Source: Planctomycetota bacterium | GTDB lineage: Bacteria; Planctomycetota; Planctomycetia; JALXBF01 | Direction: 5' to 3' | Length of the DNA: 64,000 bases | NCBI GenBank assembly: GCA_026991575.1 | Contig: JALXBF010000179.1 | Coordinates: forward strand, 1-64,000 | Made by a program: the position numbers and the translations under genes | The notes under the pieces: model-generated | Told to the model about the DNA's origin: nothing | The model's input: the letters and a program-made list of their open reading frames with translations, nothing else | Databases searched by the model: none | In this document: positions 3,191 to 55,706 of the stretch, in pieces | How positions within the stretch are numbered: position 1 is the first letter of the stretch | Layout of the letters: each line of letters opens with the position of its first letter

Positions 3191-3285
3191 GATCCCACGA
3201 CTTGGTGTGCGTCAGCTATGGGGCTTCCTGCACGTTCAGAAACGGACTACGGCATTGCCAGTCGTACGAGACGGCAAGTCACAAC

Positions 3286-34464: not shown

Positions 34465-34483
34465 GACAACCCCCCTGCCCCCT

Positions 34484-35062: not shown

Positions 35063-35090
35063 CCCTCCTCTCCCCTGGAGCAGTCTCTCG

Positions 35091-35453
35091 TTACCCCTGT
35101 TCTCCGTCGTTCTCGGTTGGTCGGGCCGATGCTTGCTGGCCCTGCTGCGTTGTTTCCTGGGGGCCGGTTGTTAACCAGACCAGAGTTGCCTTCCCGCACG
35201 AGCAGCGGAGCTCAAGCAACGCCCGCTCGGATCCTACCGTCACCAGCCGTACGGAGACGCCGGCATCTGCGACGGGCCGGTGATCAATCTCAGGGGCGGT
35301 CTCAGACGGCTGCGGTGGCCGGTTCGGTTCGCTGCGCCGCTCTTGCGTGCTTTCGTCAGCGTTGGTTGCCGTGTCACGCTGACTGCGCGGGCCAACAATG
35401 GCCTTCTGCTTGCTCGTGCGGACCTTTGTCCCCGGCAGTATCGCTCGGCTCAT
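35091..35453 (-). CDS. Hypothetical protein with a CxCG motif
   Basis: LELRCSCG; co-oriented and closely spaced within the operon. Confidence 0.5.
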   Translation of the reverse strand: MSRAILPGTKVRTSKQKAIVGPRSQRDTATNADESTQERRSEPNRPPQPSETAPEIDHRPVADAGVSVRLVTVGSERALLELRCSCGKATLVWLTTGPQETTQQGQQASARPTENDGEQG

Positions 35454-38193: not shown

Positions 38194-38314
38194 CCTTTCT
38201 CGGTCCCCTGAACCCCCTGCCCGCCGATACCATGCCTGGCGGAGCTAGCGTTCAGCCGAGGCGATCGGTCCGATTGGCATTGCGGACAGTGCTTCCGTGG
38301 CACGCCCGGCCACG

Positions 38315-39382
38315 TCAGGCCGATCTCCGGAAATGCCTGCGCATCTTGTACACGAACGCCAGCACCTCGGCAACCGCAAAATAAAACGCCACCGGGATCT
38401 CTTGTCCCACGGGAACGCTTCGGTAAAGCGCCCGTGCCAGCGACGGCCGCTGCACCACCGGTACGCCGGCTTCCCGCGCCTTCTGGATGATACGCTCGGC
38501 CAGCCGCTCGGCCCCCTTGGCCACCACAACCGGGGCGGGCATCAGGCCGCGCTCGTACTTCAGCGCCACGGCCACATGCGTCGGGTTCGTGATCACGACA
38601 CTCGCCGTTGGTACATCCTCTAGCATGCGCCGCCGGGCGTACTCACGCTGCAAGCTTCGGATGCGAGCACGCACCATCGGATCGCCTTCCTCGCGCTTCA
38701 ACTCCTCCTTCAACTCCTGGCGTGTCATGCGCAGCTCTTGCTCGTACCGCCACCGCTGATAGCCGTAGTCCGCAAGGGCAAGCACCAGTAGGGCGGCCGC
38801 AGCAGCCGCCAGGCATCGAATAGCCAGGCCCCAGGCTTCCTGAACCACCGACGCTGCAGGGGCACCAGCCAACCCGTACAGCGAAGGCGCTCGTTGCCAG
38901 ACGATCCAGCACACCACCGCCAGCACAACGGCCGCCTTGAGCACGGCGAGCACGGTCCGGAGCCACCAGCCGTCGACCATGCGACGCCAGCCCCGGGCTA
39001 GGCTAAGCCGATCGATCCGTGGCGTCAGCAGCGGGTAGGCCACATAGAAGCCGACCTGGAGCGCATCGCCCAAGAGGGCCAGAACCAAGAACACAAGCCA
39101 CAGGGTTACGGTGGCGCCAGCCGCGGCCGTAACGATGTGGCGCAGCGCATCTAGCCAACCGACCACATGCGGATGAGCTGCGGCGTCAGCGGCCCGTTGC
39201 AACGACCAGACCAACCCCTGTCCCAGTGCCGGGCCAAGCCATGCTAGGGCGGCAGTGCCCACCAGAAGAACGAGCGACGAGGTCAGATCACGACTCCGCG
39301 CGACCTGACCTTGTCGCCGCGCCTCACGCCGCCGTCGCGGGGTTGGCGCTTCGGTCTTGGCCTGAGCGTCGCCGGGCGGCAC
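38315..39382 (-). CDS. flhB: Flagellar export switch protein FlhB
   Basis: KTEAPTPRR, the NPTH cleavage motif and APVVVAKG. Confidence 0.97.
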   Translation of the reverse strand: MPPGDAQAKTEAPTPRRRREARRQGQVARSRDLTSSLVLLVGTAALAWLGPALGQGLVWSLQRAADAAAHPHVVGWLDALRHIVTAAAGATVTLWLVFLVLALLGDALQVGFYVAYPLLTPRIDRLSLARGWRRMVDGWWLRTVLAVLKAAVVLAVVCWIVWQRAPSLYGLAGAPAASVVQEAWGLAIRCLAAAAAALLVLALADYGYQRWRYEQELRMTRQELKEELKREEGDPMVRARIRSLQREYARRRMLEDVPTASVVITNPTHVAVALKYERGLMPAPVVVAKGAERLAERIIQKAREAGVPVVQRPSLARALYRSVPVGQEIPVAFYFAVAEVLAFVYKMRRHFRRSA

Positions 39383-39412
39383 GCTTCAGCTCACCTCCTG
39401 GCACCGACCAAA

Positions 39413-40165
39413 CTACCGAAACAGCGCGTATGCCCAGCGCATCCAGTCCGCTGCCACGAGCGTAAGCGCGTGGCACACGATGGGCAGGAAAAGCAGCAAA
39501 GCAACCAACCCCCCGACAATCTGAGTATTCAGCCCAATCGAAAAGTACTGGAATCCTGGTGCCGCCTTGCTCAGGAGCGACACTCCAAGCACAATCAGGA
39601 ACCCGACCACCACCAGTGGACCGACGACACCGACGCCGGCCGCGTAGCTCTTCTGCAAGGCAGCAACGTAGGCAGACGCGTCCGACGGAGCAGGCACGCC
39701 ATAGGGCCAGAGGCGGACCACGTCGTCCAGCAACAGCAGCCATGCGTGGTGTACGTCCAGGCCAAAGTAGATCGCCAACGCGATGAGCTGGAAGAGCTGG
39801 GCAAGGAGCGTGGTCGGAGAACTGGTTGCCGGGTCGGCAAGCTGACCGAGCGACAGTCCCATTTGACGGCCGAGGAAGTCACCGGCGAACTGAGCCGGAA
39901 GCAGGAACAGGAATGCCACATAACCCGCTGCGACCCCGATGATCACTTCACGCACTGTGAGAATGACGATCATTCCGAGAGAGGGGTACTCCGGGATAAC
40001 CGCTCCAGCCAGCTCTTCTGCGTCTGGCCACCAGCACAGACTCAGCGCGACGACCATGCCAAGCCGCACGAGCCGCGACGGTGCTGCATAACGCCATGGA
40101 CCGGCCGTGACGAACGCAGCAACCCGCGCCAGAACCAGCGCGTACGCGAGGGCAACGGAGGTCAT
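39413..40165 (-). CDS. fliR: Flagellar export protein FliR
   Basis: Hydrophobic protein with AGDFLGRQMGL..DP; lies between fliQ and flhB. Confidence 0.9.
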   Translation of the reverse strand: MTSVALAYALVLARVAAFVTAGPWRYAAPSRLVRLGMVVALSLCWWPDAEELAGAVIPEYPSLGMIVILTVREVIIGVAAGYVAFLFLLPAQFAGDFLGRQMGLSLGQLADPATSSPTTLLAQLFQLIALAIYFGLDVHHAWLLLLDDVVRLWPYGVPAPSDASAYVAALQKSYAAGVGVVGPLVVVGFLIVLGVSLLSKAAPGFQYFSIGLNTQIVGGLVALLLFLPIVCHALTLVAADWMRWAYALFR

Positions 40166-40431
40166 CGAACAACCTCTGGCAATGCGCTAAGTATCCTGGC
40201 CGCGTAGTGCACCGCAACACGCAGTAGCCAGGGCATCGTAATCGCCAGCACCAGGCCCACGCAGACCAGCCGGGGTACGAAGTTGAGCGTCTGCTCCTGA
40301 ATGCTGGTTAGCGTCTGTAGCACGCTGATAACCAGTCCGACCACAAGACTGGCAAGCAGTGCCGGTCCGGCCAGCACCAGGGCAATCCACAGCATCTGGC
40401 GGCCCAGCATGACAACCTCGCTCGGACTCAT
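40162..40431 (-). CDS. fliQ: Flagellar export protein FliQ
   Basis: GLVISVLQTLTSIQEQTLNFVPRL. Confidence 0.95.
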   Translation of the reverse strand: MSPSEVVMLGRQMLWIALVLAGPALLASLVVGLVISVLQTLTSIQEQTLNFVPRLVCVGLVLAITMPWLLRVAVHYAARILSALPEVVR

Positions 40432-40493
40432 CGGTTCCTCCTCCCGCCCCGCCTGTGCGCACCGACTTGGGCTGCCGTTTGACCTGGGACCAA

Positions 40494-41174
40494 TCAACCG
40501 AAGCTGAGCGCCAGCGAACGTGCTACGAGGTACCATCCGTCAGCCAGCACGAAGAGCAAGATCTTGAACGGCGTTGAGACGATGACCGGCGGCAGCATCA
40601 GCATGCCCAGGGACATGAGCACGCTGGAGACGACCAGGTCCACTACCAGGAAGGGCAGGTAGATCAGGAAGCCCATCAGGAACGCGGTCTTCAACTCACT
40701 GATCACGAAGGCGGGAATCAAGACGCGCATGGGCGTGTCCATCGGCTCGTGTGGTGGTTCGATGTCGGCGATTTGCACGAACAGGGCAATGTCGCGTTTC
40801 CGGGTCTGGCGGAGCATGAACTGCTTTAGCGGAACGCTGCCGCGTTCGATTGCCGTGCGGGCATCAATCTCGCCCTGCAGGTAGGGTCCGAGAGCGTCGG
40901 TGGCAATTCGATCAAAGACGGGAGCCATCACGAACCAGGTCAGGAACAGGGCAAAGCCGATGACGACCGGGGTAGGCGGGATCTCCTGGGTGGTGAGGGC
41001 GCGGCGCACGAAGGAAAGCACGATCACCGTTCGGGTGAAGGAGGTGACCATGACCAGGGCAAGTGACAGGAACGCAAGCGCGCCCAGAAAGAGCCCCAGC
41101 TCTAACGGCGAGCGGAGGTTTTCAAAGGGGCCGCCGTCACTGACCCGGTTCAGGATGTCAATCAAGTCCGTCAT
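40494..41174 (-). CDS. fliP: Flagellar export protein FliP
   Basis: TSFTR, PAFVISELKTAF, MLPPVIVSTPFK and DGW. Confidence 0.97.
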   Translation of the reverse strand: MTDLIDILNRVSDGGPFENLRSPLELGLFLGALAFLSLALVMVTSFTRTVIVLSFVRRALTTQEIPPTPVVIGFALFLTWFVMAPVFDRIATDALGPYLQGEIDARTAIERGSVPLKQFMLRQTRKRDIALFVQIADIEPPHEPMDTPMRVLIPAFVISELKTAFLMGFLIYLPFLVVDLVVSSVLMSLGMLMLPPVIVSTPFKILLFVLADGWYLVARSLALSFG

Positions 41175-41638
41175 GACCTGTAGCCCGACTCCGCCCCCTG
41201 CGCGGTCGTAGTCCCGTGCTCATGCCCCTGCCCGTCGGCTTGTTGCCAACCTTCGTCACCGAACGGAACCGGCAGCACGGCAACGTGCTGGATGCCGTTC
41301 TGGTCCAGTGCTACGAGGACGTCGTTTCCGCCGGCCCGGATCATGAGCAGCCATGCGCGTGGCCCCAGTCTCATGCGCGCCTGCAGGCTGAGCAGCTCAG
41401 AGTCACTGGTAGCCTGTGCCGGAACAGGCTTCAGGAACAGGCGGAGTGCGAAAATGGAAGCCACGGCCAGGGCAAGCACGACGCCGGTTGCGACGAGCGT
41501 GCGGGCGACCATTTCACCCAGGTCCGGCGGCTGGCCCCACTGGTCGATTGTCGCCGGCTGAGGTGCTGACTTGGTCGGGGCCGGCTGAGCATCCGGCTGA
41601 AGTTGTGCGATCATGCAGACCAGCACCAAGGTGGGCAT
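41171..41638 (-). CDS. fliO: Flagellar biosynthesis protein FliO
   Basis: One TM segment followed by RMRLGPRAWLLMIRAGGNDVLV; lies between fliN and fliP. Confidence 0.75.
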   Translation of the reverse strand: MPTLVLVCMIAQLQPDAQPAPTKSAPQPATIDQWGQPPDLGEMVARTLVATGVVLALAVASIFALRLFLKPVPAQATSDSELLSLQARMRLGPRAWLLMIRAGGNDVLVALDQNGIQHVAVLPVPFGDEGWQQADGQGHEHGTTTAQGAESGYRS

Positions 41639-41652
41639 CGGTGTGCTCCCCG

Positions 41653-42006
41653 CTACGCCCCGCTTGTTGTTGAGCGTCGCTTCGGGTCAATGATCTCGGT
41701 TACCCGAATCGCGAACCGGTCGTCGATCACGACGACTTCGCCCCGTGCGATCGGCACGCCCTGAGCGACCAGGTCAACCGGCTCAGAGATATTGCGGTGC
41801 AGCTCCACCACGGCGCCCGGTCCTAGCTTGGCCACCTCGGCCAGCGGCAGCCGGCGCCGTCCCAGCTCCACCGCCACAGTGACGGTCACGTCTAGCAATG
41901 GATCGATGCCGATGCCCTGCCCTTCCGTGGCCGGCCCTTCGCCGGAAGCCTGTTCGAACTCGGGTGCCTGTGCTTCGACCTGCGGTGTGTCCTGTTCGTT
42001 GCTCAT
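41653..42006 (-). CDS. fliN: C-ring protein FliN
   Basis: SpoA domain LLDVTVTVAVELGR...ARGEVVVIDDRFAIRVTEI. Confidence 0.95.
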   Translation of the reverse strand: MSNEQDTPQVEAQAPEFEQASGEGPATEGQGIGIDPLLDVTVTVAVELGRRRLPLAEVAKLGPGAVVELHRNISEPVDLVAQGVPIARGEVVVIDDRFAIRVTEIIDPKRRSTTSGA

Positions 42007-42031
42007 CGGCTTGTCCCCACGTGCGCACGAC

Positions 42032-42708
42032 TGACCGGCACTTCCTCCAGGCCGGTTCGGGTTAGCTGATTGGCCGATAGATGTCTAGGCCACCGCGAGC
42101 CGGACGGGCCAATTCCCGCTTGCCGAAGCGATGCCGTGACGGGTCGCTGCGCGGCAGTGCGGAGCTGGTCGGTGGACTGCCCACCTGCGGGTCGGATCGA
42201 ACAAATGCTGTCGTCAGAGCTCCGACGCATGGGTGGCGTCGGGGGGCATACCGCAGCACACAAGGCCGAAAGACCCCCACATGGCCGCATTCGTGGCATT
42301 CTGCTCCCTTTGCCCAGCGGCACGGTTGTTGGCGTCGCGTCCAACGCGCGTCTGTGACCACCGGCCGCGAGCCATCGGAGCGTGTCGCACGCCTCCCAGG
42401 TCACGGTGCTCGTCCGGATGGACGTCGGACAACGCGTTAGGTCGCGTGGTTCGGTACGGGTTGGCCCCGGTGGTTTTGCCGCCGACGGGCCAGGCCCGAC
42501 CGCGGGTTGGGCGATGGGGACAAGCCTGTGGTGGGCCGCCGCCGTTATCCAGTCAGGCTTGCTGGCGGAGGACGTAAAGTGCGACCGCTGACAACAGCTG
42601 CGCAAGCCATCGCGTGACCCTGCCCTGATGTGCCGGCGTCAGCCCGCCGGGACCGGCACCAAGTTGGTGGTGTTCGCCAGCTCTCGCCACCTTTCTGTGA
42701 CCGGCACT
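42032..42708. repeat. 11-bp direct repeat TGACCGGCACT bracketing the fliM-fliN spacer
   Basis: Exact copies at 42032-42042 and 42698-42708. Confidence 0.6.
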
Positions 42709-42724
42709 AGAGCTGAACTGCGCC

Positions 42725-43564
42725 CTACTCTTCGATGCGGCTGGTGATCTGTACGGCCTGACGCAGGCCAATCCGGACCGGACGTCCCTCGAACATGCGG
42801 CGGTCGTTAATAGCGACAGGAAGGTGTCCTTCGACCGAGGTGCTCAGCAGCAGCACGTCGCCTCGCCGTAAGGACCGGAGTTCTGCCACAGAAAGCTCCG
42901 TCTCGCCGAGCCACACGGTCATTTCTAGCGGGATGGCCGTGATGTCGGGATGCTGCAGCCGTGAGGGGGTTGCCGCGCCGTGCCGCACCATCCGGTCCAC
43001 GATCCAGCGCAGCGGCAGGAGCCAGCGCCAGTGCCCCTCGCCCGCATCGGTGGTCATCTTCCAGGAGAACTGGACGAGCGGATCGAATGGCGCATACGCG
43101 CGGCGGAGTTCTGTGCCGGGCTGAGCGTGACCGAGACGCAGCTCCGGCACTTCCTTGGACGGCCATGTCTCGGCGATCGCTTCCACAAACTCGTGGCAAA
43201 GAACCTCGAACAGTGCGGTCTCGATCGGTGTCAGTTCAGCGGCTTCCGGGAGCTGGTCCATCACATCGCCGAGCATGCCCGCTACCAGGAGCGTGACGAT
43301 TGGGACGTGGGCGTAGGCTATGCCGACGCCCTTGCCTTCCAGACCGAGCCGCACGCCCACGACTTCGGGACCGGCTGCGCGCGTCAGCTCCGCGGCCGGG
43401 CCCGTCGCGTACGGTTCGGCCTCGAAGGTGACTTGAAACGGCAACTGCGCTCCCCACCGACGGGCCACCGCCGCGCCTAGGTCGGCTAGCCAGCGGTTCA
43501 GTTTTTCCTTGGCTTCGCTCGGGAACAGGTCCGGGTGAACGAAGTCGAAGCGTGGTGCCGTCAT
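42725..43564 (-). CDS. fliM: C-ring protein FliM (N-terminally short)
   Basis: N-terminal RFDFVHP, ELTPIE and a C-terminal SpoA domain; lies between fliL and fliN. Confidence 0.85.
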   Translation of the reverse strand: MTAPRFDFVHPDLFPSEAKEKLNRWLADLGAAVARRWGAQLPFQVTFEAEPYATGPAAELTRAAGPEVVGVRLGLEGKGVGIAYAHVPIVTLLVAGMLGDVMDQLPEAAELTPIETALFEVLCHEFVEAIAETWPSKEVPELRLGHAQPGTELRRAYAPFDPLVQFSWKMTTDAGEGHWRWLLPLRWIVDRMVRHGAATPSRLQHPDITAIPLEMTVWLGETELSVAELRSLRRGDVLLLSTSVEGHLPVAINDRRMFEGRPVRIGLRQAVQITSRIEE

Positions 43565-44094
43565 TGAATGTTGAACTCTTCGAAGAGCACGCCCAGGATC
43601 TTTTCCTCGTCACCGACCAGGATCCGATTGAACGCGTCGCGAATCTCGCGACTGAGTCGGTTTAGCGCTGCAGCACCGCGAACTTCTTCGAGTTGCTTGT
43701 CGGAGAGGTAGGCGATGAGCCAGTTCTTCAGCAGCGGTTTCTTCTGCTCGACCAGCTTCGTGATCTCGTCCGCATCCTCGGCCCGGACCTCAAGGCTGAT
43801 GTTCACCCGCATGTAGCGGTTGAGGCGCGGCTCATTCAGGTTGACGACGACGTCTCCGAACGGAACGTAGACCGTTTCGTCTTGTGCGTCGTCTTGCTTG
43901 TCAGCTTTTTCCTTCTCGGCAGCTTGTTCCGCTTGTGCCTGGGTCGTGCTGCCTGCGCCGAACAGGCGCGGCACCATCATGCCGCCAAGCCCGCACACTA
44001 CCCCGACGACCGCCATGATCAGGAAGTCGATCAGGGTCGCGCCCTTCTGGCCACCGGCTTGTTGTTCTGCTGCCTGGTCCGCGCCGTCGGCCAT
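43561..44094 (-). CDS. fliL: Flagellar protein FliL
   Basis: N-terminal TM segment; VVVNLNEPRLNRYMRV...VLFEEFNIQ. Confidence 0.92.
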   Translation of the reverse strand: MADGADQAAEQQAGGQKGATLIDFLIMAVVGVVCGLGGMMVPRLFGAGSTTQAQAEQAAEKEKADKQDDAQDETVYVPFGDVVVNLNEPRLNRYMRVNISLEVRAEDADEITKLVEQKKPLLKNWLIAYLSDKQLEEVRGAAALNRLSREIRDAFNRILVGDEEKILGVLFEEFNIQ

Positions 44095-44262
44095 TGTCTT
44101 GCCCCTGCGTGCATCGTCAGCTCAGGAAGCGAGCGGCGAGCCGCTCCTGTTATTGCAATCGGACCGCCCGCCGTGTGTTTTTAGCGATTCCGCGAGAGCA
44201 CAGCAATGGAAGGTGGCCGGCCGCCGGCCGGAGCCGGCGCTGTAAGAAGCGGCCAACCAACG

Positions 44263-44976
44263 TCAGCGCACGAAAAGCAGACGGACGGCGAGGTCATAGG
44301 GGGCGTCGGCCCGCACTCGAGCCAACGTGATCACCTGAGGCAGCTCGCCGCGGTCTCGATGCGCCAACCGGGCGATCTCTTCTTTGATGGCCGCGGCTAT
44401 CCTGGCGCCACGTTCCAACTGCTGCGCGCCTGGCTGTTTGACGCCGACCTCCACGTACACCCGCCGTTCTGCACTGGTTAAGACGGGCAGAAGCTCGACG
44501 ATCCGTTGAATCTGTTCGTCGCTGAGGTGCGGTGGCTCGGACCGTGCCGGGCCGGGCAACGGCACCACCGCAACTCCGATCGTCTCGACCGTCTGGTCGG
44601 ACGACTCGAACTGTCGCCGCAGCTGCTGTAGCATGCGCGTGAGTTGTTCTTGCTCGAAGTCATGGACGTCGCCGGAGACCTCTTGTTCCGCCTCTGCTCC
44701 CCCCTTTTCGCCCTCGCCTGCGCCCACCTGGTAGTGCGGACTGACTGCTTCGAAGTCGGTCGCCTGAGGCGTGCCGCTGAAGAGACCGGCCAAGCCGAAC
44801 GTGTCCAGGGCCCGTACGAACGAGCCGGTTCCCTTCCGAAAACCGGCCTCCTGTGATTGGCTCAACGTGCTGAGCACGATGAACAGCGCCAGCAGGATCG
44901 TCATGGTGGACCCGAAGGCGATCAGGTATGCTTCCTCGCTGCTGGCTCCCGGATCCTGCACCTTCTTCCGGGCCAT
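44263..44976 (-). CDS. MotB-like stator subunit paralog lacking the conserved Asp
   Basis: The TM YLIAFGSTMTILLALFIVL and a plug-like F..GSF..AL align with the MotB N-terminus. Confidence 0.7.
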   Translation of the reverse strand: MARKKVQDPGASSEEAYLIAFGSTMTILLALFIVLSTLSQSQEAGFRKGTGSFVRALDTFGLAGLFSGTPQATDFEAVSPHYQVGAGEGEKGGAEAEQEVSGDVHDFEQEQLTRMLQQLRRQFESSDQTVETIGVAVVPLPGPARSEPPHLSDEQIQRIVELLPVLTSAERRVYVEVGVKQPGAQQLERGARIAAAIKEEIARLAHRDRGELPQVITLARVRADAPYDLAVRLLFVR

Positions 44977-44999
44977 TGTCAGCTCCCCACCATGGGTGC

Positions 45000-45665
45000 C
45001 TAACGTTCCAGAGCCGTGTCCGCTACGATCGCCAGGTAAATCGTCCCCGGCCGGCCCTTCCCCTCCGGATACATGCCCGCAGCGATCCAGCCCCGCCCAG
45101 CCCAACGCTCATGCAGTTCAAGGGCAAGGCGAGAAGCGGCCGGCAGGTCCTGTGCGTCACCGGCCAGGAACTGCAGGTCGTACGGGAAACGGTCGAAGAC
45201 CGTGGCGATGCTGTTGATCAGCAGGCGTCCCTGGGGGGTAAGCTTGCCGTCGGCCGTCACGAGCTGTTCCCGGGGCAGTCGGATGACGATCGCCTGCAGC
45301 GTCTCGTCGCGGACGCCGCGCGCCAGCAACTCGCGTAGCCGGCCAACCGACTCGGTGAGCTCCTCCTGGTACCTGGGAGGGATCCGCGACCCCCCGCGCG
45401 GCGTGCTCGATGCTGCCGTCTCGGTCCGGTCGACGAGAGCGTCGCGGTAGTTGTCGCTGGGGGTGACCAGCTCCTGGAGCAGGCCCAGGCCGGCCAGCGG
45501 GCCGCTGAAGAGCGAGCTCTTGAATTCGCGGAACTCACCAGCACTCTTGCTGGAGAACGTCAGCAGGAGGACGAAGAACGTCATCAGGTTCGTGATCATG
45601 TCGCCGTAGGTCCCCAGCCACGGCGGGGGCCCCTTCGGCTCGACCTTCCGCTCCTTACGGGCCAT
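45000..45665 (-). CDS. motB: Flagellar stator protein MotB (degenerate periplasmic domain)
   Basis: PPWLGTYGDMITNLMTFFVLLLTFS. Confidence 0.85.
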   Translation of the reverse strand: MARKERKVEPKGPPPWLGTYGDMITNLMTFFVLLLTFSSKSAGEFREFKSSLFSGPLAGLGLLQELVTPSDNYRDALVDRTETAASSTPRGGSRIPPRYQEELTESVGRLRELLARGVRDETLQAIVIRLPREQLVTADGKLTPQGRLLINSIATVFDRFPYDLQFLAGDAQDLPAASRLALELHERWAGRGWIAAGMYPEGKGRPGTIYLAIVADTALER

Positions 45666-45810
45666 GCTGCTACCCTATGATGCAGCATTTCCGATCCATG
45701 GGCTGCGGTAGCGAATCCCACCCGCTACCAAACGGACGGATCCCGGGCGGGGCCAAGCGGGGAGTGTCGGGCCGGCGCGGTCACGCTCACCGAGCCCTGC
45801 GCGCCGGGCT

Positions 45811-46572
45811 CTAGCCCATCGCTTCACGCAGCTTCGGAGCCAGGAACGCCTTCAGCTTCTCTTCGATTAGCCGGGGACTGTGTCCCTGGGTCATCGACAC
45901 CAGCCCTTCGACCATTAGCTCACGGATGAGCACCTCCTCCTTGCTGCGGTTTTCCAGCTTCCCGGCCAATGGCATGGCGAACAGGTTTGCCAGCAGTGCG
46001 CCGTAGAAGGTGGTCAACAGAGCAACGGCCATCGAGCCGCCCAGCTTGGACGGATCGTCCAATGTCCGCAACATCTGGATCAGACCGATTAGCGTACCGA
46101 CGAGTCCGAAAGCCGGTGCAGAAGCGCCGAGCGACTCGAAGATCTTCTTGCCTGTTGTGTGCCGCTCTTGCAGCCAGCTGATTTCGATGTCCAGGATCTC
46201 TCGGAGCACCTCCTGCGGCGTGCCGTCAACCACAAGCTGGACCCCCTTGGCCAAGAACGGGTCCTTGAGCTCCTCGATTTTGCTTTCCAACGCCAGAGGA
46301 CCGTCACGGCGACAGATGGTTGCCAGCTCGACGATCTGCTTGATGACTTCTGAGGGAGACGGAAGCTGGTGCGAGAAGCAATTCTTCGCCACGGCCGCCG
46401 CCCCGATGACTTTCTCGAGCGGGAACGCGATCAGCAGGGCCGAGAACGAACCCCCCACGGTAATCAGCAAGGAGGGCACGTTGAAGAACGCTCCCAGACC
46501 ACCCCCCATCAGGATGGAGCCGAAGACCAGGGCTAAGCCGGCAATGAGACCTAGTAGCGTTGCGATATCCAC
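45811..46572 (-). CDS. motA: Flagellar stator protein MotA (PomA/MotP-like size)
   Basis: RRDGPLALE, APAFGLVGTLIGLIQML and ALLTTFYG. Confidence 0.95.
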   Translation of the reverse strand: MDIATLLGLIAGLALVFGSILMGGGLGAFFNVPSLLITVGGSFSALLIAFPLEKVIGAAAVAKNCFSHQLPSPSEVIKQIVELATICRRDGPLALESKIEELKDPFLAKGVQLVVDGTPQEVLREILDIEISWLQERHTTGKKIFESLGASAPAFGLVGTLIGLIQMLRTLDDPSKLGGSMAVALLTTFYGALLANLFAMPLAGKLENRSKEEVLIRELMVEGLVSMTQGHSPRLIEEKLKAFLAPKLREAMG

Positions 46573-46618
46573 CGCTCACCCTCCGTGCGTCCGGCATCGC
46601 CTGTGCGTGTCCATCACG

Positions 46619-47389
46619 CTATCGGTTCGACTCCTCCGCCATGCCTGTCTGTAGAGGGACGAGGCCTTTCATGCGTTCCGTCAGTTGAGCAGCGAGTGCC
46701 TTGTCTTGCATTTCGGCCAGAACCTTACCTGCGTTGCGTGGGTTCATCCTGGCGAGCACTTGAACGGCCGTCGTCATATTGCCGCTGTTGGCCATGGCTT
46801 CCAGCATGAGCGCGGCGGCATCAGGCGACATGGTGTTGAACATCTCGGCCATTTTCCGCACGTTAGCCGCCTCACTGCTGCTCAGCATGAGCGTCTGCTC
46901 GCGCAGCTGCCGTTCACGCTCAGCCAGCCGTTGCTCGGCTTGCTGGAGCTGAGCCACCTGCTGCTTAAGCAGTTCCAGCTGTTTGCTCACCTGACGGCGC
47001 AGGGAGACGATCGCTTCCCGTTCGGCACGCAGGTCGTCGTAGAGGATCTGCAGACGGGTTTCACGGATCTCCAGTTCTTGTTCGCGTCGCTTGACGTCAG
47101 CTAGCCGAGCCCGCAGCTTTTCGGCCAGCCGAACGATCTCTTCAGCCATGACTGGAGCCGGCGACGCAGCCAGCGTCTGGTCCGAGAGGACAGAATCGAC
47201 CGCGCTGTCCGCCTCATCCGGGGCCGCCGGCGTCGCCTGCTGTTCCTGGGCGGTGAGTGGACTTTGGTCAGCAGGCGGCGCTGCGGCGTCGATGCCAGGA
47301 GCGGCCCCTCCCTGAAAGTAGAGCGAAGCCCCTGCCGAGATGGCAAAGGCCGTCATGCCTGTTCCAAGGATCATGAGAACCCGTTTCAT
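46619..47389 (-). CDS. MotE/YlxF/FlbB-like coiled-coil flagellar protein
   Basis: N-terminal TM segment and coiled coil; C-terminal MAEMFNTMSPDAAA...MNPRNAGKVLAEM (MgtE-N-like). Confidence 0.75.
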   Translation of the reverse strand: MKRVLMILGTGMTAFAISAGASLYFQGGAAPGIDAAAPPADQSPLTAQEQQATPAAPDEADSAVDSVLSDQTLAASPAPVMAEEIVRLAEKLRARLADVKRREQELEIRETRLQILYDDLRAEREAIVSLRRQVSKQLELLKQQVAQLQQAEQRLAERERQLREQTLMLSSSEAANVRKMAEMFNTMSPDAAALMLEAMANSGNMTTAVQVLARMNPRNAGKVLAEMQDKALAAQLTERMKGLVPLQTGMAEESNR

Positions 47390-47862
47390 CGGTCACTGAA
47401 CTCCGGCTTCGACGGCCGCGTCGGCCTGCGGCTACGATAGGAGCGGATCGCGCGGAGCCGCAGCACGGCGTCGTCCAGTTCGTTCGCTTCACGCCACTGC
47501 AGGGCCCGTTGGTAAGCCCGTTCCGCCTGGAGGCGGAGCCTTTCCGCGAGCTTGGCGTCGCGCCATGCCTCGCCATGGCGAGCCTGGGCCTCTGCCAGCT
47601 CGCGGCGGCATTGTGCTTCTTCCTGAAGCAGCACGTCGAGCTGTGCACGCAGCCCGTCGAGATACGCGCGCACCAGCGCGCCACGGATCCCGTCCGGCCG
47701 CCACTCCCTGCCAGCTCGCTCCAACGCCTGGACAGTCTGGGCAATCTGCCGGTGCACGCCAAGAAGCCGGGTCTGGGCAGCAAGCACCGCACCACGGTGT
47801 TGCTGTTCGATAGCCGCTCGGTAGCGGTGCAGACGACGTGTTAGCCTCAGTCGTCGCTTCAT
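47386..47862 (-). CDS. fliJ: Flagellar export protein FliJ-like
   Basis: Coiled coil of about 150 aa ending E..ELDD; directly after fliI. Confidence 0.7.
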   Translation of the reverse strand: MKRRLRLTRRLHRYRAAIEQQHRGAVLAAQTRLLGVHRQIAQTVQALERAGREWRPDGIRGALVRAYLDGLRAQLDVLLQEEAQCRRELAEAQARHGEAWRDAKLAERLRLQAERAYQRALQWREANELDDAVLRLRAIRSYRSRRPTRPSKPEFSDR

Positions 47863-47957
47863 CGCACACTCGGTTCTTCTCGCAGCGGCCGCCCGGTTCC
47901 GGCTCAGTGCGAGCTGTTCTTAGCTTCGGCAAAGTCGACAGCACCGGTACAGTCGTT

Positions 47958-49298
47958 TCAGCCAGAGGGCTGGAGCCAACGCGCGGCGATGGCCTGCAGG
48001 GCTGCCAGCGTGTTCTCACGACGGGCTGCCTCATCGGGCGGTTGCCTCAGGAACGCGTTCATAGCCGGCAGGAGATCGAGCGCGCGGTCCAGCGTCGGAT
48101 TTGCCCCCCGTCGGTAGCCGCCGATCTGGATGAGTTCTGCCGCGTCGCGGTACACGGCCAGCGCTTCGCGGAACGCCGCCGCCGCCCGTTGCTGCTCTGG
48201 CCCGGCAATCTCGTTGGCCAGGCGGCTCAAGCTCTGGAGCACGTCGATCGCGGGATAGTGGCCGCGTTCGGCAAGGTCACGGCTGAGCACGATGTGACCA
48301 TCCAGAATGGCACGCGTCGCGTCCGCGATCGGGTCGTTGAGGTCGTCGCCTTCAACGAGCACCGTACACAGTGCCGTGATAGCGCCCCGTTCTGCTGAGC
48401 CCAGTCGCTCCAGCAACCCGCTCAGCAGTTGGAATACCGACGGCGTGTAGCCGCGGGCCGTGGGCGGTTCGCCAAGCAGCAGGCCGAGTTCCCGCTGAGC
48501 CATCGCCAGTCGCGTCAGACTGTCCAGGAACAGCACCACGTGTTTTCCTTCGTCGCGGAAGTACTCGGCAATGGCGACTGCCGTGTACGCGGCTCGCACG
48601 CGCAGCAGCGGCGACCGATCCGACGTGGCCACGACAGCGACCACGCGCGCAGCGTTACCTCGGGCCCGCGACGCTTCCAGCGCGGCCTGCACCTCACGGC
48701 CACGCTCGCCGACCAGACACAGCACAACAACATCCGCCGTGCAATGGCGGCTGATCATCGACAGCAACGTTGTCTTGCCGACGCCACTGCCTGCGAAGAT
48801 GCCGACCCGTTGGCCGATGCCCAGCGGAAGAAGGCCATCGATCGCCCGGACCCCGGTGATGAACGGGTCCTTGATGGGTCGGCGGCGCACCGGATCCGGT
48901 GCAGACCGCTGGATCAGCGTCGGACGCACACCTCTGAGCGGGCCCCGGCCGTCGAGCGGTCGTCCAAGACCATCGAGCACGCGTCCGAGTACCCCCGGAC
49001 CAGCAGGCACTTCCAGGGAACAGCCCAGGGACAGAACGATGCCGCCCGGTTCAAACCGGGCGGCATCGTCATAGGTGAGAGCTTGGGACAGCGAGCCGTC
49101 GAAGCCAATCACCTCCCCTCCGTGCCAGCAGCCCTGCTCGTCCCGTACCAGACAGCGCGTGCCGACAGGAGCTCGCAGACGGGTTTCCAACAGGGCGGAA
49201 CGCACCGCATGCAGACGGCCCACAGGCCGTGCCAGTGGCCAGCGCTCGATGATCCGAAGCCACTGCTCTGTCGGGTTCGTGCGATCCCGGTCGCTCAC
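47958..49298 (-). CDS. fliI: Flagellar export ATPase FliI
   Basis: Walker A AGSGVGKT; GERGRE, DSLTRLAMAQRE and ILDGHIVLSR. Confidence 0.96.
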   Translation of the reverse strand: MSDRDRTNPTEQWLRIIERWPLARPVGRLHAVRSALLETRLRAPVGTRCLVRDEQGCWHGGEVIGFDGSLSQALTYDDAARFEPGGIVLSLGCSLEVPAGPGVLGRVLDGLGRPLDGRGPLRGVRPTLIQRSAPDPVRRRPIKDPFITGVRAIDGLLPLGIGQRVGIFAGSGVGKTTLLSMISRHCTADVVVLCLVGERGREVQAALEASRARGNAARVVAVVATSDRSPLLRVRAAYTAVAIAEYFRDEGKHVVLFLDSLTRLAMAQRELGLLLGEPPTARGYTPSVFQLLSGLLERLGSAERGAITALCTVLVEGDDLNDPIADATRAILDGHIVLSRDLAERGHYPAIDVLQSLSRLANEIAGPEQQRAAAAFREALAVYRDAAELIQIGGYRRGANPTLDRALDLLPAMNAFLRQPPDEAARRENTLAALQAIAARWLQPSG

Positions 49299-49930
49299 TA
49301 CCCCTCCGCTGATTCGTCCGTAAGTGCGGCCCACAGGGCCTCAACCAGCCAGTCCAGCTCGCGGGACGGCTCCAGCCAGAGGCTGCCCGATTCGGTCTCG
49401 ATCAGGACCGCGCCACGTTCGACGCGATCGTCGGCAACCAGACTGATGTCAGCAGTCACAAGCTCAGTAAGCTCGCGCACGGCCGAGTGACCGTGCAGCG
49501 CCTGATAGACGCTGGGATGCACATGCAGCGTGATGGGGCCAGTGCCGTGGGCGTGGTGGCTTTCGGCCAACACTCGTGCAGCCAGCCTGATGAGGCACTG
49601 AGGATCGTCGCGGAGCGTGCGGTCCAGAAGTCTTCGGGCCAGCTTGTCGGTGAGCACCAGTGCGGCGTGGGCAGCTTGTTGCAGGGACCGCTCCCGTGCC
49701 GCGACCAATTGGTCACGAGCAGCGGTCAGGGCGCGCACGGCCTGCCTAAGGGCGGCGATTTCCGCAAGCAGCGCTTCACGCTCCTGCTGTGCTCGAGCCT
49801 GCAGTTCTTCGCGCAGGGGGGCTAGCCGCTCGGCAACCCTCTGTTCGACCAGCTTCTCCTCGAAATGCGCTGCCAGCTCCACTGCGCCGGGCAGAAAAGG
49901 CAACGCCAATGCACCGGTGGCTTCCGCCAT
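49298..49930 (-). CDS. fliH: Flagellar assembly protein FliH
   Basis: ITLHVHP...DDRVERGAVLIETESG; lies between fliG and fliI. Confidence 0.85.
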   Translation of the reverse strand: MAEATGALALPFLPGAVELAAHFEEKLVEQRVAERLAPLREELQARAQQEREALLAEIAALRQAVRALTAARDQLVAARERSLQQAAHAALVLTDKLARRLLDRTLRDDPQCLIRLAARVLAESHHAHGTGPITLHVHPSVYQALHGHSAVRELTELVTADISLVADDRVERGAVLIETESGSLWLEPSRELDWLVEALWAALTDESAEG

Positions 49931-49947
49931 CTAGCTAGCCCCCCTGA

Positions 49948-50961
49948 TCAGCTATGCGTCAGAACCTCTTCGCCGCGTTCTTCCAGGGAACAGATGGTCT
50001 CCACCAACCGCTCGACGCCAGCAGCAACGGTCTGCTCATCGAACGTTTCTGTCGTAAGGGCTTGCTCGACGACGTTGCGTACCCGCTCGGGCAGGACGCG
50101 GAAAACCCGTGACTTTACCAGGGGGTCAGCGCTGCTAAGCACGGCGGCCAGGGTGCGTGCGTCGAGCTTCTGGATGACGCGCCGCAGCACCCGATCCGGC
50201 ACGTTGACCAGGTCCTCGATGCGATAAACGAGTTTGCGGAGATTTTCAGCCAGTTCGGGGCTGCGTTGTGCGAGCGTTCGCAGCAGACTGACCCGCGCCG
50301 GCGCTGCCATCCGCCGTACGGCCTGTGCCAACCACAGGAACCGTTCGTTCGCCGGACCGTCTGCGGGTGTGCGCTGGGCATGGAGGCGAGCAACCACGGT
50401 GCGGAGGATCTGGGTGACGAGCGTCTGGGGGGCCGGCCTGCGGAGCAGCAGACGCTGGGAGACGGCTGCGGCCAGCTCGGGACTTAGCTCGGCGATGATC
50501 CGCGCCGCGTAACTCGGGTCAAGCAGCTGGAGCACGATGGCAATGGCACCAGGACTTTCGTCCATCAGTACCTTAACGACGTCCCGGGGATCAACTGCCT
50601 GGATTGAGCGGATCAGGCTAGGTAGATCACCGGTTCCCGTGCCGCCGGCCGCGCTGCTTGGTTGGTCGATGCCGACAGCTTGCGCGGGCTCCGGTCGGCC
50701 GTAGGCCGCGCGCGCCTTCAGGGCTGCACCGACGAGGTTCACATGCGGGCCAGCAGGTGGCTCGGCTGCGTGCAGCGCCAACTGGAGCTCGCCCGTCACC
50801 GCTCGCACCAACTCCTGATTCGGCGGCCTCTGTTCCAACGCAGCCAGGCGCTCCCGCAGCTGCTGACCCAGCTCGCCCAGGCGCGCGAGGACCTGTTGCC
50901 GCAGCTCGGGCGAAAGCGCGGCCAGCAGGACGGCGGCCTTTTCCCGTCCAGAGATCGTCAC
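49948..50961 (-). CDS. fliG: Rotor protein FliG (divergent)
   Basis: SGREKAAVLL N-terminus, DESPGAIAIVL and C-terminal LEERGE; follows fliF. Confidence 0.85.
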   Translation of the reverse strand: MTISGREKAAVLLAALSPELRQQVLARLGELGQQLRERLAALEQRPPNQELVRAVTGELQLALHAAEPPAGPHVNLVGAALKARAAYGRPEPAQAVGIDQPSSAAGGTGTGDLPSLIRSIQAVDPRDVVKVLMDESPGAIAIVLQLLDPSYAARIIAELSPELAAAVSQRLLLRRPAPQTLVTQILRTVVARLHAQRTPADGPANERFLWLAQAVRRMAAPARVSLLRTLAQRSPELAENLRKLVYRIEDLVNVPDRVLRRVIQKLDARTLAAVLSSADPLVKSRVFRVLPERVRNVVEQALTTETFDEQTVAAGVERLVETICSLEERGEEVLTHS

Positions 50962-52508
50962 GCTACCGCCTCCTCTTCCTCACGCAGCCAACGCTCCAGC
51001 ACTTTCGCCACCGCGTCCGGGTCCCGTTCGATGTTCTCCGCGAGCACGGGCATCGGGTGGGCGGACCTGTCGGGGGCAGTGCCCGCTGCGGCCGTCGCGG
51101 CGGCCTTCTGCTCAGGGGGGCCTGCCGGCGCAGGGGGCAGGAATCGACGCACGACGAGCCAGATCGTCCCGAAGGCCATTAGCGACGCGATGACCAGCGA
51201 CGCGGTGCGTGCCAACGTCATGTAGCGTTCCCACCGCTGTGCGGCGGCAAGCTCCTGTTGCAGTGCCTGCCGCATGCGAGCACTAGCAAGGTCCGCCTCA
51301 GAGACGGTCAACTCATCGCCCCGTGCCTCCTGGATGCCTACCGCTGTGCGGACGACCTTTTCAACGTCCTGCACCGTGATCGCCGGTTGACCGTCTTCCG
51401 TTGCAGGCAGGTCAACCAACACGGCCACGGTGAGGCGTTTGATCTGGCCCGCATGGTTCAGCGTGCGCGAGACCGTTTTGGAGACCAGGTACTCGTTTGT
51501 GATCGTCTCCTCCTGGGAGAGTCCCCCTGGTGCGTTCGTGGCGCCGGCCCCTGCTGCTCCAGGCACGTTGGAAGCGACCCCGGGTACGCCACGCGGCACT
51601 GCTCGTGAGCCACGGGTCTCTTTCTTGTTCGTGATCGATTCCGTGCGCACGACCTTGTTGTCCGGGTCGTACTGCTCGCGTGTCAGCTCCTGCTGCGTAA
51701 GATCCACCTCGGCGCTGACCTTGACGACCGCCCTGCCGGGGCCGAGCAGTTCCGTGAGCATCTCTTCGGCTTTCCGTGCCAGGTACTCTTCCAGGTTGCG
51801 GCGATATTCCAGGAGCGATGCCGACAGAAAGCTTTCCTCGTCACGCGGGCCGGCCAGCACCCGGCCCGTCGTGTCGAGAACGGTCACGTTATTCGGGCTC
51901 AGTCCCTCCACACTTCCGGCAACCAGAGCGGTGATGCCGCGCACTACCCCTGGGCCCAGCGTGGCGCCGGGCCGAAGCTTCAGCACAACGCTAGCCGTGG
52001 GAGGCTTCTGCTCGCGTACGAAGGGCGACGGCTCGGGTCGGGTGATGTGCACGCGGGCTGCCGCGACCGGCTCGAGCTGACTGATCGTCCGCGCCAACTC
52101 CGCTTGCAAAGCCCGCAGGTAGTTGACCTGCTCCATGAACGGCGTCATGCCGAAAGGCGATTCGTCGAAGAGTTCGAATCCCTTGACGCCGCCGTCGGCA
52201 ACCCCCTCGGCAGCCAGTTTTAGCCGCAACTCGTGGACCTTGTCCCCCGGGACGTAGATCGACGTGCCGTCCGCCCCGACCTTGTACCGCACGCCCAGAC
52301 GTTCAAGTGCCTCGGTAACCGCCGCTGCGCTTTGCGGCGTGAGATTACCGAAAAGCAGCCGGTAGTCAGGCTGAGCTGCCCAGTAGAGCACGCCGAACAG
52401 CACTGCAAAGGCCGCTGCCAGGCCACCCACCATCAGCAGACGCCCGGTCAGCGAAAGCCCCTGCCAAACGGTGCGAACCTGCGCCAGAAGTTGCTGCCAC
52501 GTTGTCAT
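50958..52508 (-). CDS. fliF: MS-ring protein FliF
   Basis: GFELFD, NYLRALQAELARTI, ARVHI and PTASVVLKL. Confidence 0.95.
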   Translation of the reverse strand: MTTWQQLLAQVRTVWQGLSLTGRLLMVGGLAAAFAVLFGVLYWAAQPDYRLLFGNLTPQSAAAVTEALERLGVRYKVGADGTSIYVPGDKVHELRLKLAAEGVADGGVKGFELFDESPFGMTPFMEQVNYLRALQAELARTISQLEPVAAARVHITRPEPSPFVREQKPPTASVVLKLRPGATLGPGVVRGITALVAGSVEGLSPNNVTVLDTTGRVLAGPRDEESFLSASLLEYRRNLEEYLARKAEEMLTELLGPGRAVVKVSAEVDLTQQELTREQYDPDNKVVRTESITNKKETRGSRAVPRGVPGVASNVPGAAGAGATNAPGGLSQEETITNEYLVSKTVSRTLNHAGQIKRLTVAVLVDLPATEDGQPAITVQDVEKVVRTAVGIQEARGDELTVSEADLASARMRQALQQELAAAQRWERYMTLARTASLVIASLMAFGTIWLVVRRFLPPAPAGPPEQKAAATAAAGTAPDRSAHPMPVLAENIERDPDAVAKVLERWLREEEEAVA

Positions 52509-52587
52509 GCCCGACCAGCCCTCCTTGACCTGCCCCGTGGTCACAACGGCCGGCTATGCACCGGGACGAGTTGCCTGGCGTGCTACA

Positions 52588-52881
52588 CTACACCTGCATG
52601 CGTAGCACTTCGCTGTAGGCCTGGATCAGCCGGTCTCGCACCTCCAGAACCATACGCACTGCCATCTCTGCCTGGGCGACGGCAAGCATGACCGAATGGG
52701 CGCTGTCGACCTCACCCAGCACGAACCGCTCCACCATGGCATCGGCCTGCTCTTCAGCTCGCCTGGCCTGTTGCACGAACTGCTGGAGCACTTGCTCAAA
52801 AGAGTCGCCTGCCGCCTGCCTGACCTTCGAATCGGTCAGCGAGGAGAACGGACCGGATCCCTGAATTGGCTGTAGCGTCAT
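52588..52881 (-). CDS. fliE: Basal-body protein FliE
   Basis: HSVMLAVAQAE...EVRDRLIQAYSEVLRMQV. Confidence 0.95.
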   Translation of the reverse strand: MTLQPIQGSGPFSSLTDSKVRQAAGDSFEQVLQQFVQQARRAEEQADAMVERFVLGEVDSAHSVMLAVAQAEMAVRMVLEVRDRLIQAYSEVLRMQV

Positions 52882-52887
52882 CGGTCA

Positions 52888-53331
52888 CTACCCTCTGGCA
52901 ATCTGCAGTGCCTCCTCAACCATCTGGCGAAATGCACGAAGAACCTTTACGTTCGCTTCGTACGACCGACTGGCCGAAATCAGATTCACCATTTCCATGG
53001 GAATGTCGACGTTGGGCATCAGGACATAGCCCTGTGCATCGGCGTCCGGGTGCCCCGGGTTGTACACCCGGCGGAATGGGCGTGGGTCCACCACGATCTC
53101 CTGCACCTCTACGCCAGTCGGTGCAGGCTCGCCGTACCGTGCCAGGGACTCTTCAAGCACCGAGGCAAACACAACGTCGCGCCGCCGATACGGCTCGCCC
53201 GCCTCGGTGCGCGTCGTGTGAGCGTTGGCGATGTTGGCTGCGGCCACCTCCAGCCGCATCCGCTGAGCCGTCATCCCGCTGGCACTGATCTTTGCGGGCA
53301 AGAAGAACGCTGGGTATTGGATCGCAGCCAT
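52888..53331 (-). CDS. flgC: Proximal rod protein FlgC
   Basis: ANIANA..T, PYRRR, PGHPDAD..GYV.MPNV and SRSYEAN. Confidence 0.97.
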   Translation of the reverse strand: MAAIQYPAFFLPAKISASGMTAQRMRLEVAAANIANAHTTRTEAGEPYRRRDVVFASVLEESLARYGEPAPTGVEVQEIVVDPRPFRRVYNPGHPDADAQGYVLMPNVDIPMEMVNLISASRSYEANVKVLRAFRQMVEEALQIARG

Positions 53332-53783: not shown

Positions 53784-54436
53784 GAAAAACCGCTACAACC
53801 GGTCCACTCGCTACCTTGGCAACAAACCGCACCAGTAGGACTGCGGGGCAACGAGCAGCAAGCCACAACAGCGCTGCGGAGTCCTTCCAGGCGGCCATCC
53901 ACCTCCGCGTAACCCACCGTCGTCCTTCACCACAGCGGCTGCAGGGCCTGCGAAGGTGGCTGCCACACGCTGAGCCGGTCCCCGGCAGGCCCGGCTGGCG
54001 CGGGCTGCTAGCGGAACCGCGGCCGGCCTGGATGTGCTATGCCGCCCGGCGCCCCGACAACCCCTTCACCCTCGCAACGACGGGCCACGCGGCCAGCAGA
54101 TCCGGATAGAGTTGCCGCGCTTTGCGGCCCCGCTGGCAGTGCCCGTTCGGGTCGGCCAGCGCGCCGGTCTTGTGGTCATGGTGGTCGCTGTCGTGAGACT
54201 TCCCGCATGCCTGTCGGGCCCGGGTGTCGCGCGGGGGGCGGTCCCCACCCGCCATTGACTCCCTCAGGTGTGCAGAAAAGGCATGGGCTACGGTGAGTTC
54301 GCCGTGTGTACAGACTTTTCGGTTTGGATCGGCTAAAGGTAACGTGCCGGTTGTGTCGAGAATGCTGAAAACTGGCGGTACCGGTCGGTCGGTGTCGCAC
54401 GTCAGCCAGGCCTGCTGAACGGGGGAGGGACTCCCG

Positions 54437-55603: not shown

Positions 55604-55706
55604 ACGAGGGACGGTCAAGCTACCACGGGTCGCGTACCTCCGCGCTTGCCGCCGCAGCCCGATGGGTTGTGGCGGCAACGCGGCTTTTCGGCGTGCAGCT
55701 GTTCCG

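Follow-up and report, generated by a model that had tools for sequence, protein, structure and literature searches.

The 64,000-nucleotide stretch of contig JALXBF010000179.1 (assembly GCA_026991575.1), hereafter the window, comes from an uncultured bacterium of the class Planctomycetia, phylum Planctomycetota, and encodes on its minus strand, within an intact flagellar operon, a stator gene motA followed by two different motB genes, motB1 and motB2, the second of which bears serine in the place of the ion-binding aspartate. Such a motA-motB1-motB2 trio is, as judged from the sequence comparisons below, a conserved stator module of the Planctomycetota flagella with MotB1 and MotB2 as ancient paralogues, and it is a trait of the phylum, not a local oddity. 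The reading favoured here is a MotA5:MotB1:MotB2 unit, i.e., a pentamer of MotA around a mixed axle of one MotB1 and one MotB2 chain, with a single ion site in the lineage of the window; this assembly, which we infer from gene content, constraint and modelling, is on balance probable. The broader proposition that the mixed axle is obligate in the Planctomycetota, and that at least six lineages have removed the aspartate from one of its chains and so represent natural one-site 5:2 rotary motors, is plausible and yet stops short of being probable.

The genes and residues that an earlier note, made from the letters of this DNA, had reported for the segment 44263-46572 were all recovered, namely, one MotA with two MotB paralogues of the lengths given in Table 1, Asp22 (codon GAC) kept in MotB1, Ser23 (codon TCC) replacing the ion-binding Asp in MotB2, and the stretch RRDGPLALE at residues 88-96 of MotA. 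The codon TCC is two base changes away from either of the Asp codons. The transmembrane (TM) helix of MotB1, at about residues 15-37, contains WLGTYGDMITNLMTFFVLL / TYGDMITNLMTFF with Asp22, while that of MotB2, at about residues 16-38, contains YLIAFGSTMTILLALFIVL / AFGSTMTILLALF with Ser23; the two proteins are 25.1% identical overall and differ in their helix motifs. Behind the helix follows the plug region, which in MotB2 is a plug/GTGSF region, and a disordered linker then leads to the OmpA-like C-terminal domain, located at about residues 98-214 of MotB1 and at about residues 107-236 of MotB2. The start of motB2 is taken as the ATG at 44976, which lies 23 nucleotides past the motB1 stop behind a Shine-Dalgarno-like site GGGGAG, the open frame extending upstream as far as a TTG at 45105. 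Both proteins match Pfam MotB_plug (PF13677, cut-off 24 bits), and the genome, which is 97.84% complete, holds exactly two matches of this family, both of them at this locus. MotA matches Pfam MotA_ExbB with 107 bits (E 7e-31), and its top NCBIfam models are PomA (277 bits) and MotP (251 bits), both under their equivalog cut-offs; among the nine MotA/ExbB-family genes of the genome it is the best-scoring one and the sole one that adjoins MotB_plug genes. Its R88 and E96 were equated with R90 and E98 of E. coli by the spacing and by the correspondence given for Aquifex, where the text available from PMC4525482 pairs EcR90/E98 with AaR88/E96.

For the assessment of the distribution, 80 Planctomycetia loci were collected by means of a MotB2 profile from contigs representing one genome per species and searched with the window proteins by tblastn, which matched MotB2 in 80, MotB1 in 77 and MotA in 74 of them, always in the order motA-motB1-motB2 on one strand. 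Four of the six loci without a MotA match are cut by a contig end just upstream, and a fifth (L088) has MotB1 with no MotA match; the sixth is weighed below. Both TM motifs were seen in 67 of the 80 loci, and the intergenic distances, which are approximate because the start codons elsewhere were picked by rule, are often short or overlapping. The trio is carried by such cultured strains as Thalassoglobus neptunius, Stieleria marina, Stieleria mannarensis, Rhodopirellula baltica and a Maioricimonas strain. Of 301 Planctomycetota genomes sampled evenly, 43 had a MotB2-like match at E<=1e-10, and among 39 loci from other classes and families of the phylum two tandem MotB genes follow motA in 37, the remaining two having a single MotB-like open reading frame (ORF). 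A scan of metagenomes with the patterns of the window's Ser-bearing clade returned three loci, one of which was again the contig of G001, the sole other genome of the window's family compared here. For the DNA of the window itself the best-matching data set is a hydrothermal-vent metagenome, which may be its source; no RNA data set was listed for it.

The aspartate itself is distributed quite differently between the two paralogues, the helix residues being called by a pattern or by a small purpose-built hidden Markov model. It is invariant in MotB1 (51 of 51 family members) and in the first MotB of the phylum sample (37/37). In the MotB2 helix it is present in 74 of the 75 Planctomycetia genome loci where the pattern found the helix, while the second MotB of the phylum sample lacks it in 3 of 37 loci (Ser in L143, Ala in L147 and L175). 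The wider MotB2 set comprised 154 proteins (7 plus 147 representatives of 50%-identity clusters), the site being covered in 143 with Asp 116 times, Ser 14, Ala 10, Gly 2 and Asn once, so that the non-Asp share is 27/143, a share that may be inflated by the query profile, which was built from the Ser clade. The trees made were quick ones (IQ-TREE quick mode, FastTree). On the FastTree of 115 full-length MotB2 proteins the occurrence of residues other than Asp requires 8 changes, of which at least 6 are imposed by branches with good support. The larger Asp-less groups are the Ser clade of the window (6 members), a Ser/Ala clade of 8, among them a relative of the metagenome locus L137, and a clade of 7 with Ala, the last two counted as representatives of 50%-identity clusters; L137 itself stood outside the quick IQ-TREE, and its relative P0066 was placed in the FastTree. 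Since most MotB2 orthologues keep the Asp, the Asp-less state is derived in the window clade and in several others and is not a property of MotB2 as such. Judging by these alignments and trees, the Ser of the window is one of several independent losses of the Asp, all of them in the second paralogue, with none in MotB1 in any sequence examined. The tandem pair that the earlier note proposed to look for across genomes is conserved as a pair (74/80 and 37/39 loci), whereas its Asp-plus/Asp-minus form belongs to a minority, and the retention of Asp by MotB2 orthologues, named there as evidence against the idea, is what most of them show (116/143, and 74/75 Planctomycetia loci).

The sequence of MotB2 is under constraint irrespective of this residue. 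In the helix of MotB1, positions P14, W16, Y20, D22, T25, M28, T29, F30, F31, L33, L34, T36 and F37 are invariant in 51 of 51 sequences; in that of MotB2, T26, L29 and F32 are invariant in 47 of 47, and F21, G22, T24, M25, T26, L28, L29, A30, F32, I33 and V34 are at least 90% conserved. The 6 members of the Ser clade are monophyletic in the IQ-TREE run (Shimodaira-Hasegawa-like approximate likelihood ratio test, SH-aLRT, 100) and share 46 invariant columns at 41-72% overall identity, with Ser23 kept in 6/6 and with 15 of the invariants (E15, Y17, L18, A20, F21, S23, T24, M25, T26, I27, L28, L29, F32, L35 and L38) falling within residues 15-38. Between the window genome (G000) and G001 the identities are 87% for MotA, 58% for FliL, 48.3% for MotB1 and 48.8% for MotB2, the synonymous sites being saturated at about 49% protein identity, and the gradient along the two B proteins is alike, with 75% in the N-terminal part of MotB2 versus 69% in that of MotB1 and 39% versus 41% in the C-terminal domains. 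By this comparison of protein sequences, MotB2 decays no faster than the Asp-bearing MotB1. The pseudogene-like evolution that the earlier note had also named as counting against its idea was not seen, with the 46 invariant columns and the divergence equal to that of MotB1.

The C-terminal halves of both proteins have lost the recognisable signature of the OmpA family. Pfam OmpA is absent from MotB1 and MotB2 of the window even at E<=1, and at E<=0.01 it matches 0/47 of the MotB2 and 0/51 of the MotB1 relatives, all 51 and all 47 of which match MotB_plug (the MotB2 members 47/47 above the cut-off). The AlphaFold2 models, built on the family alignments of 47 (MotB2) and 51 (MotB1) sequences, have in both cases a confident beta-alpha-beta-alpha-beta-beta C-terminal domain behind the disordered linker, mostly with a predicted local distance difference test (pLDDT) value above 90. 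In the Foldseek comparison with the PDB, the domain of MotB2 has OmpA-like structures at the top (3td3 and 5u1h, E 7e-5 to 1e-4, probability 1.00), with Salmonella MotB-C, MotS and Pal farther down, and the domain of MotB1 retrieves the periplasmic domains of MotB from Salmonella and H. pylori together with those of MotS and PomB, the lowest E being 1.8e-4 with probability 1.00. On these models, both C-terminal halves keep the OmpA-like/MotB-C fold, and what has gone is the sequence signature, so that the claim of the earlier note that the OmpA-like signature is lacking holds for the sequence motif and fails for the fold. Profile-profile alignment by hhalign extends the homology of MotB1 and MotB2 over their full length (probability 96.5%) and relates each of the two profiles, C-terminal domain included, to the single OmpA-positive MotBs of Planctomycetia (97.4% and 98.5%); in the alignments with these single MotBs the GHTx...R loop is shorter in MotB2, and most of it is missing from MotB1. 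A candidate peptidoglycan-binding Arg is present in 32/47 MotB2 sequences, R189 of the window among them, its position relative to the canonical Arg being uncertain as placed by the profile alignments only; the MotB1 family (51 sequences) has no conserved counterpart of it.

Outside Planctomycetia both MotB copies mostly still match Pfam OmpA, so that the signature was lost later, at the level of Planctomycetia. The Asp-less second MotBs of L143, L147 and L175, from other Planctomycetota families, match Pfam OmpA with 30.8, 51.5 and 52.5 bits, respectively; hence, the loss of Asp and the loss of the OmpA signature are independent. Anchoring in Planctomycetia may be weakened or may rely on a protein scaffold, the scaffold step being speculation, while the earlier note's suggestion of an anchor other than peptidoglycan has not been established, given the OmpA-like fold that is kept and the candidate Arg in 32 of the 47 MotB2 sequences.

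In the proposed unit, one MotB1 and one MotB2 would form the two-chain axle within the MotA pentamer, their C-terminal domains pairing in the way of the MotB homodimers, and in the lineage of the window the Ser of MotB2 would leave one protonatable site per unit, that of MotB1. In the 5:2 model, as given in the part available from PMC9389320, each 36 degree step corresponds to one ion, and the two B chains serve by turns; a one-site unit working under this model would make a powered step every 72 degrees with a passive intervening step and would take half the ions and deliver at most half the torque per MotA turn. The prediction of a complex between the C-terminal domains of MotB1 and MotB2 scored 0.83, the best of three controls scoring 0.00; such a mark was attained by 116 of the 157 solved complexes and by 2 of the 215 mismatched pairs, the counts being rough since own alignments were used. 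The runs agree in at least 81% of the contacts, with a partner pLDDT of at least 80. The mixed axle is favoured because it explains four facts together: that a single A gene has been kept in company with two strongly different B genes from a time before the classes of the phylum separated; that the helix of each B protein is near-invariant, with a pattern peculiar to it; that only the second B tolerates the loss of Asp, and does so repeatedly; and that the copy without Asp remains conserved even where the genome possesses no further stator. The asymmetric arrangement with one ion site, which had been put forward in the earlier note, thus comes out as the best-supported reading on the old contiguous trio, the one-sided Asp loss, the constraint and the predicted C-domain pairing, and it should still be understood as an inferred one.

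Several observations weigh against the mixed axle. Most MotB2 proteins keep the Asp, and in most species either copy could just as well form conducting units as a homodimer, in the way of the Aquifex chimeras. The stem of the Ser clade is long, with 1.09 changes per column, and a change of function would fit it as well as axle duty. At one locus, L122 from a metagenome-assembled genome of Fuerstiella (3268-4711 (+)), the sole such among the 80, motB2 follows a rod-protein-like gene with neither motA nor motB1 in the 4 kilobases upstream. The pairing score of the C-terminal domains may mirror the solved MotB-C homodimers, hetero- and homodimer being inseparable by this score, and the residues of the predicted interface do not exceed the remainder of the domain in conservation (0.35 versus 0.40 in MotB1, 0.44 versus 0.46 in MotB2); the conservation of the interface was, accordingly, dropped as a support for the modelled dimer. 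Finally, no compensating change was found at the pore positions of MotA.

The main competitor would be a pair of homodimeric stators sharing one MotA, MotA5:B1(2) and MotA5:B2(2), such as has been proposed for Aquifex, in which the Asp-less B2 unit would be non-conducting and would serve as brake, placeholder or regulator, competing for the sites at the rotor; this alternative, which takes in the inhibitory or brake subunit of the earlier note, is unlikely, although it deserves to be kept in view. The Aquifex MotA drove rotation with chimeras of either MotB1 or MotB2 alone, as far as the accessible text of PMC4525482 goes, most planctomycete MotB2 proteins, with their Asp and plug, look channel-competent on their own, and the long stem of the Ser clade would suit a protein whose role has changed. 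However, the TM/N-terminal regions of the Aquifex pair are 97% identical, whereas the planctomycete helices differ strongly and each is near-invariant, which would not be expected of two chains fitted in one and the same way to the same MotA ring; and a dead competitor always co-transcribed with the only working stator, from genes that lie close together or overlap, would cost motility, yet the Asp-less form was fixed at least six times and was then conserved. A pair of homodimers explains the association of one A gene with two B genes, and it makes of the Asp-less form a permanently co-expressed dead competitor.

Another possibility, which appears improbable, is that MotB2 is an accessory periplasmic or scaffold protein outside the MotA ring, its helix being a mere anchor, that binds the C-terminal domain of MotB1 or parts of the basal body and positions the stator in the manner of MotY, FliL or the collar proteins. 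The dispensability of Asp in many lineages, the limitation of the predicted contact to the C-terminal domains, and the FlbB-like gene and fliL that flank the mot genes would agree with such a role, but a mere anchor would keep neither the MotB-specific helix residues at 90% conservation or more in 47 sequences nor the MotB_plug match above the cut-off in 47/47. That motB2 of the window lineage is a decaying duplicate devoid of function, as the missing residue, regarded as essential, and the long branch to the Ser clade might suggest, can hardly be maintained: the frame is open in all the members, 46 columns are invariant in the Ser clade, Ser is kept in 6/6 at 41-72% identity with a divergence equal to that of MotB1, and the other Asp-less clades are multi-member as well (8 and 7).

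Two ways in which the missing charge might have been made up for were considered and rejected. No case could be made for a compensating change in MotA, where F30, L36, K109, Q112, D116 and L194 separate the three Ser-type MotAs (the window, L055 and L137) from 65 others, since the six include no recognised residue of the pore and L137 is a member of another Asp-less clade. A relocated acidic residue was sought in Glu15, which all members of the Ser clade share; but Glu occupies this position in the Asp-bearing P0007 too, and the Ser-bearing L137 lacks it.

The positions of the features described are collected in Table 1.

Table 1. Features of the stator locus and of its surroundings in the window (all positions are those of the window)
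Feature	Position	Strand	Remarks
motA	45811-46572	-	253 aa; sole flagellar stator A subunit; PomA/MotP-like
MotA RRDGPLALE	46285-46311	-	
motB1	45000-45665	-	221 aa; Pfam MotB_plug 51.5 bits
MotB1 TM helix (approximate)	45555-45623	-	
MotB1 Asp22 codon	45600-45602	-	
MotB1 C-terminal domain (approximate)	45024-45374	-	OmpA-like
motB2	44263-44976	-	237 aa from ATG; Pfam MotB_plug 35.4 bits
MotB2 TM helix (approximate)	44863-44931	-	
MotB2 Ser23 codon	44908-44910	-	
MotB2 C-terminal domain (approximate)	44269-44658	-	OmpA-like
FlbB-like coiled-coil gene	46619-47389	-	between fliJ and motA; NCBIfam collar_FlbB E 6.5e-7, 29 bits (cut-off 110)
fliL	43561-44094	-	directly downstream of motB2; Pfam FliL 8e-19 and NCBIfam FliL models
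Gene in fliM position	42725-43564	-	279 aa
Flagellar operon	36037-53331	-	assigned from ORFs and Pfam
Operon flanks	33727-35453 and 54037-55678	-	ORFs of 245, 192, 120, 233 and 241 aa

The operon runs in the order flgC, fliE, fliF, fliG, fliH, fliI, fliJ, the FlbB-like gene, motA, motB1, motB2, fliL, fliM, fliN, fliO(?), fliP, fliQ, fliR, flhB and flhA, with Pfam matches to FHIPEP, Bac_export_1/2/3, FliP, FliMN_C, the type III secretion system ATPase, FliH, FliG, YscJ_FliF, FliE and rod proteins; fliJ and fliO, which are without a Pfam match, were assigned from their position alone. FlbB is the flagellar collar protein of spirochaetes, and FliL is a stator-associated protein in other bacteria. 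The coiled-coil gene upstream of motA, which is weakly FlbB-like, has no Pfam family above its cut-off, and an FlbB-like gene stands upstream of motA also in G001 and L137, being a possible lead to a collar-like protein scaffold for the planctomycete stator. The gene in the fliM position is short, FliMN_C being its one match at E<=1e-5, with no FliM-specific Pfam family. The ORFs on both flanks of the operon have no Pfam match at E<=1e-5 and might include lineage-specific flagellar parts.

Besides the trio, Planctomycetia genomes (L014-L043) also carry single MotBs of two further kinds, the first having the helix WVVTFGDMMSLLLT, a Pfam OmpA match and RGHTS instead of the usual GHTD, and the second an E. 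coli-like helix WKVAYADFVTAMMA; neither kind is present in the genome of the window. The single OmpA-positive MotBs are homologous to the tandem pair over the TM helix and the C-terminal domain, and differ from it as single genes that match Pfam OmpA in 12/12 tested and bear the motif RGHT[S]...DLAYxRxxAV, the loop of which is shortened or deleted in the tandem pair. At the locus L051 (G009:C1), 4443-5165 and 5433-6173 (-), there is a tandem of two similar OmpA-positive MotBs, both with Asp and both matching Pfam OmpA, which looks like an independent and more recent duplication of motB in another Planctomycetia family.

The 5:2 ion-driven motors comprise MotAB, ExbBD, TolQR and Zorya. In their current model the axle consists of two identical chains, with the aspartates binding ions alternately. 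It appears that throughout a phylum the two axle chains are kept different from each other, and several of its lineages dropped one of the two aspartates; if this is true, the alternating two-site mechanism would not be obligatory, and the step size per ion, i.e., the gearing of the motor, would be changeable by evolution. Such stators would be a natural experiment on whether one site is enough, on its effect on torque, speed and ion use per turn, and on why a homodimer becomes a heterodimer. Since cultured Thalassoglobus, Stieleria, Rhodopirellula and Maioricimonas species carry the trio with both Asp, the natural change of Asp to Ser or Ala is directly testable there. The degenerate OmpA-like domains prompt, in addition, the question of what holds these stators in place in the cell envelope.

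In a full-text search covering the main text of the papers available, no description was found of a planctomycete MotB pair or of an Asp-less flagellar MotB paralogue, nor did the full-text search find one of a heteromeric axle for a flagellar stator; the planctomycete pair, accordingly, appears undescribed in print. The 2025 survey of MotAB diversity places the stators of Planctomycetota in two clades, with no mention of 'two MotB' or 'heterodimer' in the text available from PMC12505986. The window resembles the canonical MotA5MotB2 / PomA5PomB2 stators (PDB 6YKM, 6YSL, 6YSF, 8BRD) in the PomA/MotP-type MotA, in the location of the genes in a flagellar operon, in the B helix and plug, which match the N-termini of the solved MotB/PomB with E 9e-11 to 4e-13, and in the OmpA-like fold of the C-terminal domain; it differs from them in the two different B genes per A gene, in the B protein without Asp, and in that neither B protein matches Pfam OmpA. 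Closer in gene content is Aquifex aeolicus, where, according to the portion of PMC4525482 available, one motA is followed by two motB genes in an operon and R88/E96 of MotA have the same numbering; its MotB1 and MotB2, however, are 97% identical in the TM/N-terminal regions, both have the OmpA-like domain, and each worked alone as a chimera, whereas the helices of the planctomycete pair differ, one of them is without Asp, and the pair extends over the phylum instead of being confined to a single lineage. The association of one pentamer-forming A-type gene with two different B-type genes is also known from the gliding motor AglR/AglQ/AglS of Myxococcus, for which the accessible text of PMC9389320 states as unknown whether AglQ/AglS are hetero- or homodimers, and the bacteria of the Planctomycetes-Verrucomicrobia-Chlamydiae (PVC) group have paired heterologous TolR-like genes beside one TolQ-like gene (PMC12204202, in the part available). 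Those systems are of the non-flagellar Tol/Exb type, both B chains being described with Asp in the parts of PMC9389320 and PMC12204202 at hand, in contrast to the planctomycete system, which is a flagellar stator of the MotB_plug type with one chain that repeatedly loses it.

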